A stretch of DNA of 62,619 nt, counting the filler, from Globobulimina sp. (taxonomy: Eukaryota), in assembly GCA_003354225.1 (NCBI GenBank). It is 18 parts of 18 records of this genome, joined end to end, with 100 filler letters (N's around TTAATTAATTAA, not from the genome) between each part and the next. Parts side by side here need not be neighbours in the genome. Positions count along the whole stretch, not along the records: positions 6,977 to 10,363 come from PIVH01002930.1; 17 more parts are not named here. One strand, written 5' to 3'. Below the pieces are notes generated by a model. It made no database searches and was not told the DNA's origin. It saw only the letters and a list, made by a program, of their open reading frames with translations. Each line of letters opens with the position of its first letter. Position 1 is the stretch's first letter. The position numbers were made by a program, and so were the translations under genes. Positions 6,877-60,116 of this stretch are shown piece after piece.

Positions 6877-7274
6877 NNNNNNNNNNNNNNNNNNNNNNNN
6901 NNNNNNNNNNNNNNNNNNNNTTAATTAATTAANNNNNNNNNNNNNNNNNNNNNNNNNNNNNNNNNNNNNNNNNNNNAAACTTAATGTGCTACAAAATATG
7001 TAAGTAATTGTTTATTATGTCCTTTTACATATAAATACGTTGATATAATTCAGTATTTATTCGTTTAGTCTGTTAAATATTGATTGTAGACGGATTTACT
7101 TTCTTTTCACTTAAATGCACTAACTCTAAGTGCTACTGTCTAACTATATAACTATTTCTGATACATTTAAAAAATAATCACACATGATCGCGTTGTATCA
7201 TTTTACCATTTTTTAATGGTTGACATGCAAATAAACTGTTTTTTGAAGTTTTTTTTTTTAATTAAGTGAGTCCA

Positions 7275-8354
7275 ATGGCGTCAAAACAGATAATACAAAT
7301 GAAAAAATCAGTGTATAAAACATTATTAAAATTACAAACGATGAACGTAAATGTAAGTGACTATTTAGATGAATTGCGCCCAAAATTTGAAAAGCCAGAA
7401 AAGAAACAAAATAAAATTAAACGCAAGAAAATATCATTGTTGGTTGAAGATAAAATTGGTTGGGGTTGGTGTGACAAAGGCCATCAAGTATTCCATGCCC
7501 GGGGCACCCGATGGAAAAGCAAAAAATGTGCAGGATGCGGTACAAATAAAACACCAAAAGTGTATAAGTGTTTTTCCTGCAACGATTACGATAAAAATTA
7601 CAATAAAAAGAAATTTGACCAAACTGGCAAGAAATATTTATGGTGCGATAAATGTGTAAAAAAAACGAATCCAAAAAACGTGAGAGCGCAAATTAAAGCA
7701 AATAGCAATGATAAAAACCAGATCATTCAAACATTAACAAACGACACAAAGAATGGAGTTGATATATTAACCGGTTTAAACAAGAAAAATGCTTTGAAAT
7801 ATTTGCTAAATGAAATATGTTTAAATCAAAATAAACGTAAGTTTGCGTTGTATTTATTTGAAATTGATGAGATATTCAACAAAGTGAACGAGAAACGTTT
7901 GACATATATTGGTCAAATATTAACCAGCTTTGAGCAGAAAAGTGAGCAAAACTGGAGAGAGGAAGGCGTGCCGCTGCAACGAGTCTGGAGTTTCCGTGTT
8001 GGCGGTGATAAGTTTGCCATTGTCACACAAACAAGACATGAAATATCGCAGCAGGAAGCATTTTACTTGGCGCTCGATGAAGAGATTAAAGAGTTAGACA
8101 TTTGTATATCGGCCGGTGTTTGTTGTCTTGGACTTGAAAGCACCTCATTTATGCCAGGCGGTCAATATAATGATCAGTCGCAAACGCATTCATTTTTCGA
8201 ACATCCATTGCAATCTTCACACATTAAAAAAGCAGCACATTGGTTGTTATTTGCAGGTAAAGCATTAAATGACGCGAAGCATGACGGCGGAGATTGTTAT
8301 CGAATCTATGATGACTCGCAAGTGCAAGTTGTTAAACAGTTTATTGACTGTTAA
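7275..8354 (+). CDS. Zn-finger plus GGDEF (diguanylate cyclase-like) domain protein, degenerate active site (GGDKF)
   Basis: Motifs DILTGL, FALYLFEIDEIFNKVN, FRVGGDKFAIV, ISAGV and AGKALNDAKHDGGDCY occur in GGDEF order. The N-terminus has a C-x3-H…CxxC…CxxC…CxxC module. Confidence 0.8.
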   Translation: MASKQIIQMKKSVYKTLLKLQTMNVNVSDYLDELRPKFEKPEKKQNKIKRKKISLLVEDKIGWGWCDKGHQVFHARGTRWKSKKCAGCGTNKTPKVYKCFSCNDYDKNYNKKKFDQTGKKYLWCDKCVKKTNPKNVRAQIKANSNDKNQIIQTLTNDTKNGVDILTGLNKKNALKYLLNEICLNQNKRKFALYLFEIDEIFNKVNEKRLTYIGQILTSFEQKSEQNWREEGVPLQRVWSFRVGGDKFAIVTQTRHEISQQEAFYLALDEEIKELDICISAGVCCLGLESTSFMPGGQYNDQSQTHSFFEHPLQSSHIKKAAHWLLFAGKALNDAKHDGGDCYRIYDDSQVQVVKQFIDC

Positions 8355-8686
8355 TATAAATTGAATAGAACCGAGAACACAAACAAATTGAAATAAACTA
8401 GTTGCATTTTTATATATTGTATGATTTAATTAATTTAACTTATTTTTTCTTCTAATTTATTTTTTAATCCTTATATTTTAAATTCCAAGAATGTATTTGA
8501 GTGTTTATAGAAATCATTTGCATTCTTGCCGAGCTTATCGATGTAACATTTTGTTCATTGTATAAATCCGATAAAATGGGCAGCTTCAAAATGCAAATCA
8601 CAAACGTTAACGGCAATATTTTTGATACACTGAACAGAATTAAGAAGTTTCTGTTGAATCGAAAATGAATTGAAGTGATTTTTTGT

Positions 8687-10092
8687 TTATTGCGACTTCG
8701 ACACAAGAGTCAATTTAGTATTCCAATGTCCTAAATATACCCCTTTGATAGTAGCACCATGCAATTGCGATGCAACCTCTTCGTTGATGCGAAATGGTTT
8801 ATTAACAACATCCCCATTATCTGCAATACATTCCTTATATTTATTCGTTCCCCATAAATAATGCGCATCATTCTCGCTTTTGGCATAAAAATGCGAAGCA
8901 CCACATTTGATTTCAATAATATTCACAGAACAATTAAAATCAACCAACTGTGGTTCATAATCATTGCCATCCTTAAAAGCATTCACATCGCGACTACCAT
9001 CATAACTCCCCCAACAATATACTTTTCCATTATCATCCAGCACCAAATTAGTGTCCAATCCACATTTCATATCCACCACAAAAATCTTATTGTTAACAAA
9101 ATATGGTATTGGCTGTTGAAAAGAAGGCACACTGCGACGATATCCAAAGCCAAGCTGTCCGAACATATTAGCACCAACACTCCATAATATGCCGTTTCTT
9201 TCCAACCACAGAGTGTGATGCGCGGCACATTCAACTCTAATAACTTCATTCTTGAATACATTTATCTTTCTCCACCGTTTTACTGTTGCACCGCCATGCC
9301 CATTGGCACCAATACCCGTTGAATATAACTCGTAGAAACCGCAAAATGTTGCAATTATGTTGGAAATATCAGCAGGTATATCCAGCATCACTTTGTTGCA
9401 CCATACTAGCACCACAGTGATAGCACGCATTTTATTGTTACAAATGGCAACGCAATGATGAGGACACGATTTTATATCAATTACATTATACAATGCAGGT
9501 ATATGCTGCGGCAAAGATTGATTTCTTGAATGACCTTATTATTAACGATCCAGTGCATATGTATAATTTAGGAAAACTGCTAATGGATCGTACCTAAACC
9601 TAATTGATAGAATTCGTTGATTCCATTTCCATACACTTGGCCATCGCGTGTGATCCAAAATATATTGGAACTGACGCAGTTTGCACATATCTGTCGAATT
9701 CGAATGTTGTTGCATTTGAAATATGTAATTTCTGTCAATCTGTGCGCTGCATCTTTTCCTGTGCCACATTGGCCCACCGCATTGTATCCAGCGGCCCAAA
9801 ACTCATTTTTCTGTGTTTGATAGACAGAAAAATGTCGTCCGGAATGAATTCTTGTGATTGGCTCATTCACTTTAAAATGTGTGTTGCGAGTCAAATCAAA
9901 TTGTTTGGTTGCATTGTAGCCAATGGCGTAGACCATATGATCTGATTTAGATTTTGATGCTATATATTTTGTCAATGGGGTACTATGCGTGCGCGTATTG
10001 CTCATTTGATATCGAGCACCAGTTAGAGACCAACGTGGTAGGTTATTATATAGAGATGATGGATATACATCAGTTGATTTTTTGTTACCCAT
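8687..10092 (-). CDS. RCC1/BLIP-II repeat protein (intron 9535-9593)
   Basis: Repeated 'G.N..GQ.G.G', 'IKCGASHF' and 'VYCWG' motifs. The intron joins …QLGLG|HSRNQSLP…. Confidence 0.85.
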
Positions 10093-17727: not shown

Positions 17728-19926
17728 TTAAAGAGCGGGATTGTCAGAGAAAGCAAGTCGGACAGCTAAAAGTGCACCAGTAAAATTAGTAGGAGACAAA
17801 ACACTGTTGTATTGAGAACCTGGCAACAAGTAAGGGGCCCCTGGAGAAAAGAACTGAAATTCTCGCACAAATGGAGCCGGTCTACCAGAATCTGGAAAAA
17901 TAAGGGGCCAAAAGGGTGCTGATGACCAGGCTGGGACAACGAGAGTACCGTCTGCGTGACATGTAGCCATATGTCGTAAAACTTTTGAGACCAAGGAAGG
18001 TGGGGGAACAACCCAATTAATGTCAGATGGATCCCAAGGAAAACTAAGGGCATCTACACCGGAGGTGCCTGGATTCCAATATCTGGAATTAAATTTTTTC
18101 AGTTTCGTATTATGTGCATTGGCAAAACGGTCTACTGTGTGTGGACCCCACATGTTGTCCAAAAAAGAAAAGAATGCAGGCGTAACAGCCCAATCATCAT
18201 AGTCAAATATGCGACTCAGTGCATCAGCTTTATCATTTTCTGTGCGGGGTATCCATTGCACTCTAAGATCTATATGAGCACGACTACAAGTATGATAAAT
18301 AGAAAGGGCTAGAGCATTAAGGGGAGGCCGCATACTGCCCTTGGAGACAATAGATTCGACTGCTTGGTTATCAGTAAACCATTTCACACAGAGACCCGAT
18401 AGTTGAGATTCCAAAGAAAGTAAGCCATAATCGAGCATCTTAAGCTCTCGCCAAGTAGAAGAAAGTTTTACTTCATCAGCAGTCCACATTTTATGTGCCA
18501 CCACAGTAGTATTTTCAATGTAAACTGCACCACCTGTGCAACTCGCATCAGAGTAAACTAAACTGTGAGGAAAGAATGCTCTAAGAATAGGAGAATTTGC
18601 CAGAGACAGCAAATTGTCTCGCCAAAAACGCAATTCGAACTGAACTCTAGCAGAAATTTCAATGAAAGAATCCCAACGATGGGTATCAAAAACAGAGGCT
18701 ATACTTTCATATATATTTTTCGTCATAAGTAAGGTAACAGAACCTAGCGCCATTCGCAGGCAAACAATGCGCCCAGCAGCGCGTGCTAACTGTCTAGCAG
18801 TGGCCGCCGAACGACCCAACAGAAACAACACATCAGCTTTGGCCTTCAGCCGTTTTTCTTCCGGAGCTGCGATCTCAAATCGCGACAAGTCTATATCTAG
18901 ACCAAGCCAACGCAACTGTTGCGTAGGAGCCCAATGGCTCTTTTCCTCATTAACAGAGAAGCCACAAGCAGCCAGATCATGCCGCACACGGCGAACATGG
19001 CTAATCAGCACATCACGCGTGCTAGCAGTTATCAAACCATCATCTAGATATAAAACAATACGAATACCTAGACCTCTCCAGGTTTTGACCAGTGGTTTTA
19101 ACAATTTAGTAAACATATAAGGCGCCGGGGCCAAACCAAAAGGTAAAACAGTAAAACAGAAATAGCGTGTCACACCCTGAAAAACCCAACTGAATCCTAA
19201 ATAAGTCTGGTGGGGCCCAAAAATATCCCAATGATAATAACCTTGCGTCAAATCGAAATTAGCTAGAAAGCCACCTGGCTCAAAATAAGAAAGAGCAGTA
19301 GAAATATCTTCAAGTTTAAACTTTTCTTTCCACAAATGTGAATTAACATAACGCAAGTCAAGTATTAACCGGAGCTTACCATTTGCTTGGGTCGCAACAG
19401 AAAGAGGACTAACAACATGGGGTGATGTGGGCAACTCATCTACACAACCGTTTTTTAATAATTTAAGAATAGCCGTAGATACAAAGTCAGCATGTTGAGA
19501 AGCAGAAAGATTATTTTTAAACTGAGCTGCAGGTGGCGTGTGATAAAAAGGCAATTTGTATCCATGCTCAATGACAGAAAGAATATCGGCAGGGGCTTTA
19601 ACATAATTTTGCCAAAAACTTGCACAAGCTTTAACAGACCCTTTAATATTAGAACTGTCTAAACTCGAGAGCTCGCCTCTCAGTACATAACTAAGACTGG
19701 GATAATCAGGCACCGAGCCAGATACTGCCTCAGAGGCTAACTGGGCTTTAAGAACCCTTTGAGATGGCGAAACACTTTTAGACTTACATTTTTGTACAGA
19801 AGCTTGCACATTATTAGGTGGACGTTTAAGTATGAGCTTGGGTTGAAGGACCCGGGAACTGGAAGCTTTTGCCAGGGCAGTCTTCCCGGAAATGTCCTTT
19901 GTTTCCGCAACCGAAACAGGTGTCAT
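17728..19926 (-). CDS. DIRS-type pol: reverse transcriptase, RNase H and C-terminal N6-adenine methyltransferase-like domain
   Basis: RT: RLILDLRYVN, DLTQGYYH, LPFGLAPAPYMFTK, YLDDG. RNase H: YSDASCTGG, SSTWREL, WFTDNQAV, WIPRTENDKADALSR. MT-like: WGPHTVDRFA…FNSRYWNPGTSGVDA…W…NWVVPP. Confidence 0.95.
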   Translation of the reverse strand: MTPVSVAETKDISGKTALAKASSSRVLQPKLILKRPPNNVQASVQKCKSKSVSPSQRVLKAQLASEAVSGSVPDYPSLSYVLRGELSSLDSSNIKGSVKACASFWQNYVKAPADILSVIEHGYKLPFYHTPPAAQFKNNLSASQHADFVSTAILKLLKNGCVDELPTSPHVVSPLSVATQANGKLRLILDLRYVNSHLWKEKFKLEDISTALSYFEPGGFLANFDLTQGYYHWDIFGPHQTYLGFSWVFQGVTRYFCFTVLPFGLAPAPYMFTKLLKPLVKTWRGLGIRIVLYLDDGLITASTRDVLISHVRRVRHDLAACGFSVNEEKSHWAPTQQLRWLGLDIDLSRFEIAAPEEKRLKAKADVLFLLGRSAATARQLARAAGRIVCLRMALGSVTLLMTKNIYESIASVFDTHRWDSFIEISARVQFELRFWRDNLLSLANSPILRAFFPHSLVYSDASCTGGAVYIENTTVVAHKMWTADEVKLSSTWRELKMLDYGLLSLESQLSGLCVKWFTDNQAVESIVSKGSMRPPLNALALSIYHTCSRAHIDLRVQWIPRTENDKADALSRIFDYDDWAVTPAFFSFLDNMWGPHTVDRFANAHNTKLKKFNSRYWNPGTSGVDALSFPWDPSDINWVVPPPSLVSKVLRHMATCHADGTLVVPAWSSAPFWPLIFPDSGRPAPFVREFQFFSPGAPYLLPGSQYNSVLSPTNFTGALLAVRLAFSDNPAL

Positions 19927-20659
19927 TTGGGGTTGCTCGGCGACGGACCTTAGGAGGGGCGCCGCCTCCTTGACGAAAGGGCGGACGGTATGCTGATGCA
20001 GATGTACTGGATGTCATGGCACGGTCAGAGCCAAAAGCGTGATTGAAAGAGCGTTTTCGTTTGCTCTCCTGTTGTTTTCGTAAAGCACGCATTTCAGCAG
20101 CTCGCAATTGCTTGCCATCTTCTTCATCCTGAGCCAACTCATCGCGAACATATTCCTCCACAGTGGACCAGCCTGCAGGTGAACGGTCAGCAATACGAAT
20201 TAATTTCTGTCTTTCTTCAACTAATTTGGCAGCCGACTTAAGAGCTTCCTCGCCCTTGACTTGATTTGCTGGATCTGTGTCATTCAATAAAGTTTGAGCT
20301 TTCATGATTTGGTCGTAAATCTTTTCATTTACTTCATATTGCTTTTGGTTTCCTTTTTTCGCAAATGTAATATCACTAGAAGCACGAAAGGAACGAACTG
20401 GAGCTGCAACTTTATCGGCAGTTAATTGGCTACGGATACGGTCCATATGTTGAGAAAGGGCAGCATCAAGAAATGTCATCAATCTACGGGAATCGACAGG
20501 ATCGGATGCCGATTGAGAAACTGGCTGTTGTTTGCCGTCTCCAGACGAAAAAGCTGGATTGAAATGAATGGAAGTAGAAGGCTGTCCTTCATTAGTAGGT
20601 TGAACGTCGCCCAAAATTGCTTCTTCATTGAGATCATTAGTATCACTTTCGTTTGACAT
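19826..20659 (-). CDS. Gag-like ORF1 with CCHC zinc knuckle; overlaps pol by 101 nt
   Basis: 'RQKLIRIADRSPAGWSTVEEY…LAQDEED.K.LR.AE' and CFGCGNKGHFREDC. Confidence 0.9.
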   Translation of the reverse strand: MSNESDTNDLNEEAILGDVQPTNEGQPSTSIHFNPAFSSGDGKQQPVSQSASDPVDSRRLMTFLDAALSQHMDRIRSQLTADKVAAPVRSFRASSDITFAKKGNQKQYEVNEKIYDQIMKAQTLLNDTDPANQVKGEEALKSAAKLVEERQKLIRIADRSPAGWSTVEEYVRDELAQDEEDGKQLRAAEMRALRKQQESKRKRSFNHAFGSDRAMTSSTSASAYRPPFRQGGGAPPKVRRRATPNDTCFGCGNKGHFREDCPGKSFQFPGPSTQAHT

Positions 20660-36412: not shown

Positions 36413-37798
36413 TCACAAATCATCTCCAGCCAAAGCTTGAAATTTGTAATTATCCATTTGTTTCTTTCTAGAATGAGAATAAGTGAATATTATCAACAAT
36501 CCAACCAAGAAAACAGCAAACATACTGCCTAACACAATCCCAATGGTCTTCAGATCATCGTTTCCATCACTTTCATCATGCACAGTATACATCATATACG
36601 AGGATGCTCCAACAAACACTTTAATCACTCTCATATTTGTTCCTTGAGCACCACTCCAATCCATATTACCTAAAAAATATCGATGTAACCTATTGGTTGT
36701 AAAATATAAATAGCCATTGTTATCCCATCCAAATGTGTCAATCCATTGTAAACTCACATTATTATTTAATATCGACACTGCATGTTTTTGTGTATAATTA
36801 TTCCTCTCAACTTCATCAATCTCAAATTCATATTTCATTGAATGTATTGCCGTTTCATGCAACGATCCAAAATATAATACAGATTCATTACTAAATGTCA
36901 TTCCATCCATATTCGATGTCCTATTCCCAATAAATTGTATTTGTTGCATACAATCATTTGTATATACTCGCACATCATATGTAGGCACACGATATAAACG
37001 ATAACTTGACAGAGGACAAAAATATAACCAATTTAAATCAGGCGACAATGCAATACCATCATTGCCCGATGCAACAGAAACTGTGTGTCGATTAATAGTG
37101 ATATTCCGTGCTGGACTCTTCTGGCCGTCATAATTCATCACAGGATCACTAAATCGATGCGAACGATCATTGAGAAAATCATACACAATGATACCACCAT
37201 TATGTGGCTCACCAAATACATCGGAAATATATGCAAATTTATTCACGACATCAACTACGATATCATTCAAAAATGAATTGTTATGTTTTGCTACAGAATC
37301 TGGAAAAACATGTGTTTTTACAATTGTATCAGTCATTATATCATAAATTATAAGTTTTGGTGGACATTGATTGTCTGTGATATGATAGATATCAAAGAAA
37401 TATTTTCTGCCAACATCCAAGATCCACATTTTTCCATCGGAATCGATTTCCATTGATTGGATATTTTGCAACATATTGCAATCATTGATATTTTGCATTG
37501 ACCAGGATGGATACGGCGATAATACGGGTTTGTTGTTTTTGGTAATCACTTTATTGAGTGTTGATGGGATACCTTTTCTCCATCGAGGTACACTCACAAA
37601 TATTGTATCTTTACTATACACTTTAATTCCTGTAATGATATTATTCTCCATAATATATGATCCGTTTGTTATTGATTTGTTTCTGGTGATATCGTCCCAA
37701 TCATATTCCACCTGGACCCATTCATAAACTACAGTGTATCATATGGCTATTATGGGGCGGAGACAAGTTAGTAATACAAGTATCTCCAGCAAAGCCAT
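36413..37798 (-). CDS. Yellow / major royal jelly protein (MRJP) family with signal peptide and C-terminal TM; one in-frame TGA at 37739-37741
   Basis: Motifs IFVSVPRWRKGIPSTL, LSPYPSWSMQ, MWILDVGR, PKLIIYD, FLNDIVVD, AYISD, DGIALSPD, LYFCPLSS and WIDTF. Confidence 0.88.
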
Positions 37799-59140: not shown

Positions 59141-59284
59141 NNNNNNNNNNNNNNNNNNNNNNNNNNNNNNNNNNNNNNNNNNNNTTAATTAATTAANNNN
59201 NNNNNNNNNNNNNNNNNNNNNNNNNNNNNNNNNNNNNNNNAACAGCCCGAATTACGGTGGCTGCACCGCTAACCAGGTCGCCAC

Positions 59285-59991
59285 CGGCCAGATAGACCGA
59301 GCCGGTACAACACAACCCCTCGCTCTCACGAAGGCCCTGTCGGGCTCTTGCCACGGCCTCCGCCGCGTCCTCGACCCGCTCGATTTCGAGCCGCGGAGCC
59401 AGCGAGCGGATTCGATCGCTCAATAGCCCGGGGTCGAGGGAGCGCATGGCGTCGGCTCGCGTGCACCAGACCCTGTGCACGTGGGGAAGCAGAGCGCGGA
59501 GAATCGGGTCCAGGTCCTTGTCGCTCGAGACTGAGAGCACCAGGTGCATTGCCTTGCCATCGAAGCGCTCGAGCTCTCTGCCAAGGGAGAGCGCCGAAGC
59601 CTCGGTATGAGCCGAGTCCACCAGCACGAAGGGCCGCTGCCCGATGCGCTCCAGGCGACCCGGTAGATGTGCCGAGGGCAGACCCTCGCGAGCGGCTTCG
59701 GCCAGCCCAGTGGCATCGATCCCGTCGAGCTGCTCCACGGCCGCAATCGCCAGCGCCGCGTTGTCGAGCTGATGGCGACCGAGCACATTCAGCTCGAACT
59801 CCAGCTCACGACCCGCCGACGTGCGATAGCACGCCACGCGTACCCCCGCGCCAGCGTCAGCGCGCACCTCGACCTCGAAGTCGACACCCAGGCGCAGCAG
59901 GGGCGCCGCCCGCTCAGCGGCCCGCTGCACGATCACGCTCTCGGCCTCGGGCCCCACTCGCCCCACCACACAGGGCACTCCTGGCTTGATG
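59285..59991 (-). CDS. folC: Fragment of bacterial bifunctional folylpolyglutamate synthase/dihydrofolate synthase, GC-rich
   Basis: IKPGVPCVVG, LGRHQLDNAALA, LPGRLE, VLVDSAHT, DKD and CTGSVYLAG. GC content is sharply higher than the rest of the contig. Confidence 0.9.
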
Positions 59992-60116
59992 TGAGTGTTT
60001 TTTCGTTGAGAAAATACTTTAATTTGCGATTTTGCAAATTTAAAATTCAAACAACTTTGAAAAAGTGGAGTAGTTTGAATTGTTTGTGATTCTAATGTTT
60101 CACTCATTCAATTCAA

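Follow-up and report, generated by a model that had tools for sequence, protein, structure and literature searches.

The open reading frame at positions 7275–8354 of the window, that is, of the whole 62,619-nucleotide stretch of Globobulimina sp. DNA analysed here, is a real gene from the nucleus of a foraminifer-like protist. It encodes a zinc-finger protein, P0001, with a bacterial-type GGDEF domain. Judged by its residues, P0001 is a conserved pseudoenzyme, dead yet kept, and the domesticated zinc-finger-GGDEF family to which it belongs is as good as certainly real. To our knowledge, c-di-GMP is known almost only from bacteria. The best reading, of moderate confidence, is that P0001 is a pseudoenzyme and a putative regulator of its paralogues, within a family of diguanylate cyclases that is domesticated and probably active. 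Since it is a dead member, it matters mainly as a pointer to the family and as a candidate regulator.

The gene, its contig and its host

The window consists of 18 unrelated contigs, each about 3.4 kb long, with N44-12 bases-N44 spacers between them, and adjacency across these spacers is meaningless. P0001 is encoded on the third contig (6977–10363, G000:C2930) together with an RCC1 gene (Table 1). The first-pass annotation had placed it on the same contig as an intron-bearing RCC1 gene, and this holds, the intron being skipped in three of four runs (X2, X6 and X8, from three studies) and retained in X1. The frame of P0001 is free of stops and an intron is unnecessary for its translation. The ordered GGDEF motifs read earlier from the DNA were all confirmed in position, with D-I-L-T-G starting at 7761, FEIDE at 7857–7871 and GGDKF at 8001–8015, and the N-terminal C-x3-H/CxxC/CxxC/CxxC series was likewise found, as C66-x3-H70, C85xxC88, C99xxC102 and C124xxC127. 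An Rfam scan of the contig gave no match.

Table 1. Features on the contig that carries P0001 (positions along the window)
Feature	Position	Strand	Content or evidence
P0001, single-exon ORF, 359 aa	7275..8354	+	Hairpin and Cys/His module, then the long helix and the degenerate GGDEF domain
Two N-terminal helices, residues 2-22 and 27-38	7278..7388	+	Model pLDDT about 80-96; family-wide in alignments
Cys/His module: C66, H70, C85, C88, C99, C102, C124, C127	7470..7655	+	Family alignment; Pfam ZZ, E 0.024
Long helix, residues 125-156, running into the DxLT motif	7647..7742	+	AlphaFold model
GGDEF-fold domain, residues 163-353	7761..8333	+	Foldseek, VIA-align
Degenerate first motif: E196 for D327, N202 for K332, N205 kept, 8-residue deletion	7857..7901	+	
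RVGGDKF, K246 replacing metal ligand E370, no upstream RxxD	7995..8015	+	
Low-confidence part of the ~20-25-residue insert common to P0001 and orthologue P0004	8151..8204	+	
C-terminal motif: G328 for D of ADxAL, K335 kept (K442), G339 for R446	8256..8312	+	
RCC1-repeat gene; GT-AG intron of 59 bases at 9535-9593	8687..10092	-	Pfam RCC1; run joints
Dispersed host repeat upstream of P0001	6977..7128	.	At least 46 assembly matches, with 40 of 93 candidates scored

Contigs of the runs in which the RCC1 intron is skipped cover the reading frame from 7264 to about 8330, but since none of these runs is registered as RNA in the record annotation, transcription of P0001 is graded as probable. The same runs have no coverage at 8446–8558, where X1 continues. 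At the 5′ side, the X2 and X6 contigs match the window from 7264 onward, a point preceded by a T-rich tract and adjacent to an AG, and their loose 5′ letters are foreign to the window; a short motif resembling these letters occurs at three other places in the assembly with two mismatches. The break at 7264 is possibly an off-contig 5′ exon or a strain difference. A spliced leader was also considered as the source of the loose ends and was unsupported by the run contigs and the motif searches.

A host origin follows from several lines of evidence, namely, in C20767, a paralogue with an intact GGDEF domain, DIDGFK and TLNEKLGHDGAD are separated by a GT-AG intron of 209 bases, the GC3 of P0001 is 0.34 as compared with 0.31–0.43 in six host genes, a host repeat lies upstream, all the 16 relatives for which a species is named are foraminifera, and family members are fused to eukaryotic domains. 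A Bolivina protein, P0003, reads straight across the intron site of C20767. From the named relatives alone, the host appears to be foraminifer-like. Contamination by bacteria is present in the assembly, which includes bacterial GGDEF, EAL and PilZ pieces and two apparently chimeric contigs (C613 and C1737), and no single contig listed from the four runs bridges the span from the reading frame to RCC1, all of which would suit a bacterial contaminant or a chimeric contig; yet it is no explanation for P0001, given the intron-bearing paralogue, the foraminifera-only named relatives, the host-like GC3 and the upstream repeat, and the bacterial-looking GGDEF sequences of C613 and C37254 are not part of the family branch. 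This explanation is largely refuted and its probability is negligible.

As side observations, C613 (L001) and C1737 (L019) each have host-like genes towards one end and a bacterial-type GGDEF or EAL sequence at the opposite end, and are probable chimeras. Elsewhere in the window there are a reverse transcriptase (17731–20013, minus strand) on a GC-richer contig, which also matches Dam methyltransferase weakly (E 7e-4) and is likely a retroelement, a gene of the major royal jelly protein/yellow family (36416–37738, minus strand; E 1.9e-42) and a Mur ligase C-terminal domain (59196–60107, minus strand) on another GC-richer contig, perhaps bacterial.

GGDEF fold and catalytic residues

The C-terminal domain of P0001 is, by the fold of its model, a GGDEF domain. 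This identity is firm because the family profile and the fold agree, although the match of the single sequence is weak alone: against Pfam GGDEF (PF00990), the check proposed with the first-pass annotation, P0001 scores above chance (E 0.0012) and falls short of the gathering cut-off (19 versus 23.8 bits), and against NCBIfam PRK09894 it gives E 5e-7, far below the cut-off of that model. A single-sequence search of solved structures returned one match (E 0.66), which was dismissed as chance. With the family profile, 48 solved sequences were matched, nearly all of them named cyclase or GGDEF proteins, including DosC at E 9.5e-19. The AlphaFold model of P0001, made from a 46-row alignment (pLDDT 86, pTM 0.80), consists of helices 2–22 and 27–38, the Cys/His module at about 60–130, a helix at 125–156 and an alpha/beta domain at 162–353, with low confidence at insert residues 293–310. 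The top Foldseek match is WspR (3bre, E 1.6e-7), and VIA-align superposes P0001 on DgcZ (4h54) with Z 15.7, rmsd 2.5 and 150 aligned residues, ranking about 30 GGDEF entries above Cas10/Cmr2 and class III cyclases, whereas adenylyl and guanylyl cyclases reach Z 8–10 only. The DgcZ superposition and the DosC match together bear out the GGDEF identity first read from the motifs. In addition, the long helix lies where bacterial cyclases have their coiled coil and aligns in the family profile with the pre-GGDEF helix of 9p6j, and the N-terminal helical hairpin may serve as a dimerisation element; a homodimer prediction for P0001, made without use of the alignment and with the fold uncertain, scored 0.00 and speaks neither for nor against pairing.

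The catalytic state was scored at seven PleD positions (D327, K332, N335, D344, E370, K442 and R446), with K or R accepted at 332 and 446; the list is taken from the available text of PMC6629876, where position 370 is written Asp370. P0001 retains two of the seven (N205 for N335 and K335 for K442), while D327 reads E196, K332 reads N202, D344 is deleted, E370 reads K246 and R446 reads G339. The losses thus comprise the two metal ligands, the catalytic Lys, the Asp that binds guanine and the residue at R446. R241 and the GG turn are retained together with N205 and K335. The loss of D344 lies in an 8-residue deletion after R208, seen against the orthologue P0004 and the paralogue P0017, which takes away the GH..D344 segment. 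An "ND..GH..GD" segment had been described as missing, which is right for the eight residues but not for the Asn itself, retained as N205. An assembly error does not account for the deletion, because none of the four runs has an insertion at this place and contigs of X1, X2 and X6 cross it. In runs X6 and X8 and in protein P0006 the signature is GGNKF instead of GGDKF. Furthermore, no RxxD I-site occurs five residues ahead of the signature in P0001 or in the other 33 of the 34 family rows listed. With two of the seven positions left and no I-site, P0001 itself is almost certainly not a cyclase, and the earlier description of a nucleotide-binding or cyclase domain with possibly altered catalysis was too generous for it.

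Nevertheless, P0001 is not junk, because a degenerate foraminiferal orthologue is 61% identical to it and most of the variants seen in related runs are synonymous. This orthologue, P0004, is listed for Bolivina argentea and clusters with a Nonionella stella protein, keeps four of the seven PleD positions with the signature NGDTF, and groups with P0001 at 100/99 in the tree; between the two, the N-terminal half is as well conserved as the GGDEF half, and the insert of about 20–25 residues that they have in common is absent from the intact paralogues in the alignment. Among the 40 of 123 variant rows that were available, X2 shows 12 synonymous and 2 non-synonymous changes in P0001 (three minor-depth rows excluded) and X6 shows 19 synonymous and 11 non-synonymous changes, the sites available for change being 204 synonymous and 873 non-synonymous.

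The zinc-finger-GGDEF family

The Cys/His module is a family character, each of its eight ligands being kept in 28–37 of the 33–38 family rows covering it. These ligands are enough for two zinc ions, and their spacing suggests a ZZ/C1-like cross-brace. The Pfam ZZ match (Table 1) reaches 14.9 bits against a cut-off of 21.4; the N-terminal model gave a best Z of 4.3 against the PDB, with recurring C1-like rows at Z 3.0–4.1, within noise, and no Foldseek match under E 1. An ESM Atlas search with residues 1–160 yielded no usable match and was uninformative.

The count of paralogues, a point raised by the first-pass annotation, comes to ten family loci in the assembly by searches with three proteins (C2930, C13972, C20767, C1681, C5429, C1686, C12930, C5448, C28734 and C39124). 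Several of them are cut by contig ends or apparently broken, the apparent lesions being a TAG in C13972, a TGA in C39124 and a frameshift in C12930 and C5448. The last two (L009 on C12930, L008 and L018 on C5448) are near-identical pieces with the same apparent frameshift ahead of the signature, and one of them may carry an intron within the GG codons.

When 1.84 billion representatives were searched with the profile, family members took ranks 1–28, and 57 family proteins were recognised among those fetched, by their N-terminal score and by eye. Taxonomy was sampled for 22 family proteins besides P0001 and for one cluster mate; seven have no species name, and the 16 named comprise 12 from Bolivina argentea, three from Nonionella stella and one from Elphidium margaritaceum, all of which we take to be rotaliid foraminifera. 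Some family proteins are fused with other domains, such as PH and SPRY (P0019), ankyrin (P0025) and a ubiquitin-conjugating domain (P0030), in transcript assemblies that may include chimeras. The paralogues clear the Pfam GGDEF gathering score with 34–79 bits, and 39 of 46 alignment members match this model at E 0.01. Of 47 aligned domains, 27 family rows span all seven catalytic columns and 18 of these keep all seven PleD positions, the last two columns being possibly misaligned in P0044; C20767 scores six only because its first Asp sits in the other exon. Scans with a pattern from the family alignment, sensitive to close relatives only, confirmed none of 25 candidates in prokaryote genomes and none of 207 in metagenome contigs.

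In a tree of the GGDEF domain alone (LG+G4), all 38 family rows fall on one branch against 50 others with support 98/89, or 100/97 with P0066, labelled "rest" in this tree, included; the bootstrap was unsettled (0.942). This tree, the second one made, left out three unrelated GGDEF rows of the same genome, eight family rows, most of them partial, and 59 of 108 outgroup rows. It speaks to the single branch, its outgroup rows being taken irrespective of taxonomy and Dictyostelium DgcA lying outside its sampling. The intact paralogues are the nearest tree neighbours of P0001, the C20767/P0003 type being the closest of them, and otherwise have the same architecture. The intron-bearing paralogue, the foraminifera-only named relatives and the single branch uphold the earlier proposal of a domesticated GGDEF domain. 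In a quicker, earlier tree with 158 rows, the long-branch row C17480 had been drawn into the family. Degenerate GGDEF domains in host-like genes were also seen at C3594 (L004), C3753 (L005), C17480 (L006), C28909 (L012) and C14454 (L013), which fall outside the zinc-finger family or place unstably and whose architectures, by eye, include a membrane protein, a SAM-like part, a Gly-rich tail and an ankyrin-like tail.

Proposed role, alternatives and known systems

Bacterial diguanylate cyclases work in dimeric form: a coiled coil joins two GGDEF half-sites, each of which carries GTP and metal. By their residues, the intact paralogues, such as P0017, P0018 and P0021, probably make c-di-GMP, because the catalytic residues and the long helix in the coiled-coil position are present. 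A bacterial-type diguanylate cyclase domain would have been acquired and then expanded in foraminifera; the intact paralogues would pair via the N-terminal hairpin together with the long helix, and this pairing would join two GTP-loaded half-sites to give c-di-GMP without I-site feedback, the zinc module being the putative input or docking site. P0001 retains the hairpin, the zinc module and the long helix but is predicted to be unable to hold GTP and metal. Because its pairing and zinc parts are kept and the GTP/metal site is lost, it would most likely be a non-catalytic regulator, damping or placing the active paralogues through pairing. That it acts on the paralogues is a tentative suggestion, with somewhat less than even chances.

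The main rival to the regulator reading is that P0001 is a scaffold or adaptor apart from cyclase control, in which the dead GGDEF domain and its insert bind a protein while the zinc module works. The equal conservation of the two halves, the insert specific to the dead pair P0001/P0004 and the degenerate GGDEF proteins of unrelated architecture elsewhere in the assembly would all suit it; however, P0001 gained no new interaction domain and in architecture otherwise matches the intact paralogues, its closest tree neighbours, and the scaffold is rather unlikely. Degenerate bacterial GGDEF domains can bind GTP or c-di-GMP without turnover, and a nucleotide sensor or effector of this kind would be in line with the retained R241, GG turn, N205 and K335. 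This is still less probable, since P0001 has lost the segment with the guanine-binding Asp, neither metal ligand is unchanged, D245 reads N in close relatives of P0001 and the RxxD I-site is absent from P0001 and from the family rows listed.

The signature variants GGDKF, GGNKF and NGDTF indicate that the site is still eroding, and this erosion, together with several broken paralogues, also fits the birth and death of copies. A young duplicate that decays slowly, its function gone, would be consistent with these broken paralogues and with lesions private to the P0001 lineage, such as the 8-residue deletion, but hardly with an intact frame, a strong synonymous excess and the occurrence in two other genera of an orthologue that is 61% identical and just as degenerate, so it is very improbable. 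An active enzyme with another product or substrate, e.g., a hybrid cyclic dinucleotide, is more improbable again: the fold is intact and the specificity positions differ, but the metal ligands and the catalytic Lys are also changed, and differently between the orthologues.

Partners for cyclic-dinucleotide signalling, which the first-pass annotation had proposed to look for, were not met with among host genes: searches of the assembly found no host EAL, HD-GYP or PilZ. The domains that did match (one EAL, three PilZ and one HD_5) sit in gene-dense, intron-free, bacterial-type reading frames as judged by eye, and STING gave no match with an equally blank control. Consequently, the rest of the pathway is missing or unrecognised. 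The hint of cyclic-dinucleotide signalling holds, and its source is the paralogues with complete catalytic residues rather than P0001. There is an even chance that foraminifera run their own c-di-GMP signalling, in which a large zinc-finger cyclase family fused to eukaryotic modules would be tuned by conserved dead paralogues such as P0001 and served by receptors and degraders other than EAL, HD-GYP, PilZ and STING. Should the paralogues prove active, a receptor and a phosphodiesterase, both missing so far, would be obvious targets to look for.

Among known systems, the module of P0001 resembles the ZZ and C1/DC1 zinc fingers in its CxxC spacing, in the stretch YKCxxCxDYD and in repeated weak C1 matches, whereas it begins with C-x3-H, has a 21-residue loop and stays below the Pfam cut-off. 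Like the degenerate bacterial LapD and FimX (VIA-align Z 13.8–14.1), P0001 retains the fold with catalysis apparently lost, but it has no EAL partner domain, membrane anchor or I-site. With the bacterial GGDEF cyclases (PleD, WspR, DgcZ, DosC and SiaD; PF00990) the family shares the fold, the motif order, the long helix before DxLT and, in most full-span paralogues, all seven PleD residues; it differs from them in its eukaryotic host, its introns, the hairpin and Cys/His module in place of REC, PAS, GAF or HAMP, the lack of an I-site in the rows listed and, in P0001, the two residues left of seven. Literature on diguanylate cyclases or GGDEF in foraminifera, Rhizaria and Reticulomyxa, with supplements and most subscription journals outside the scope, contained no report of the family. 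Dictyostelium DgcA is described in the available text of PMC10559540 and PMC4686194 as the first eukaryotic diguanylate cyclase, obtained by horizontal transfer, and in that of PMC4686194 as a single gene per dictyostelid genome whose function has been shown. Compared by description and not by sequence, the two cases are alike in having a prokaryote-type cyclase domain inside a eukaryote, whereas the foraminiferal family is large, includes dead copies and belongs to another supergroup. If active, it would be a second, much larger eukaryotic use of the cyclase domain after that of the dictyostelids.
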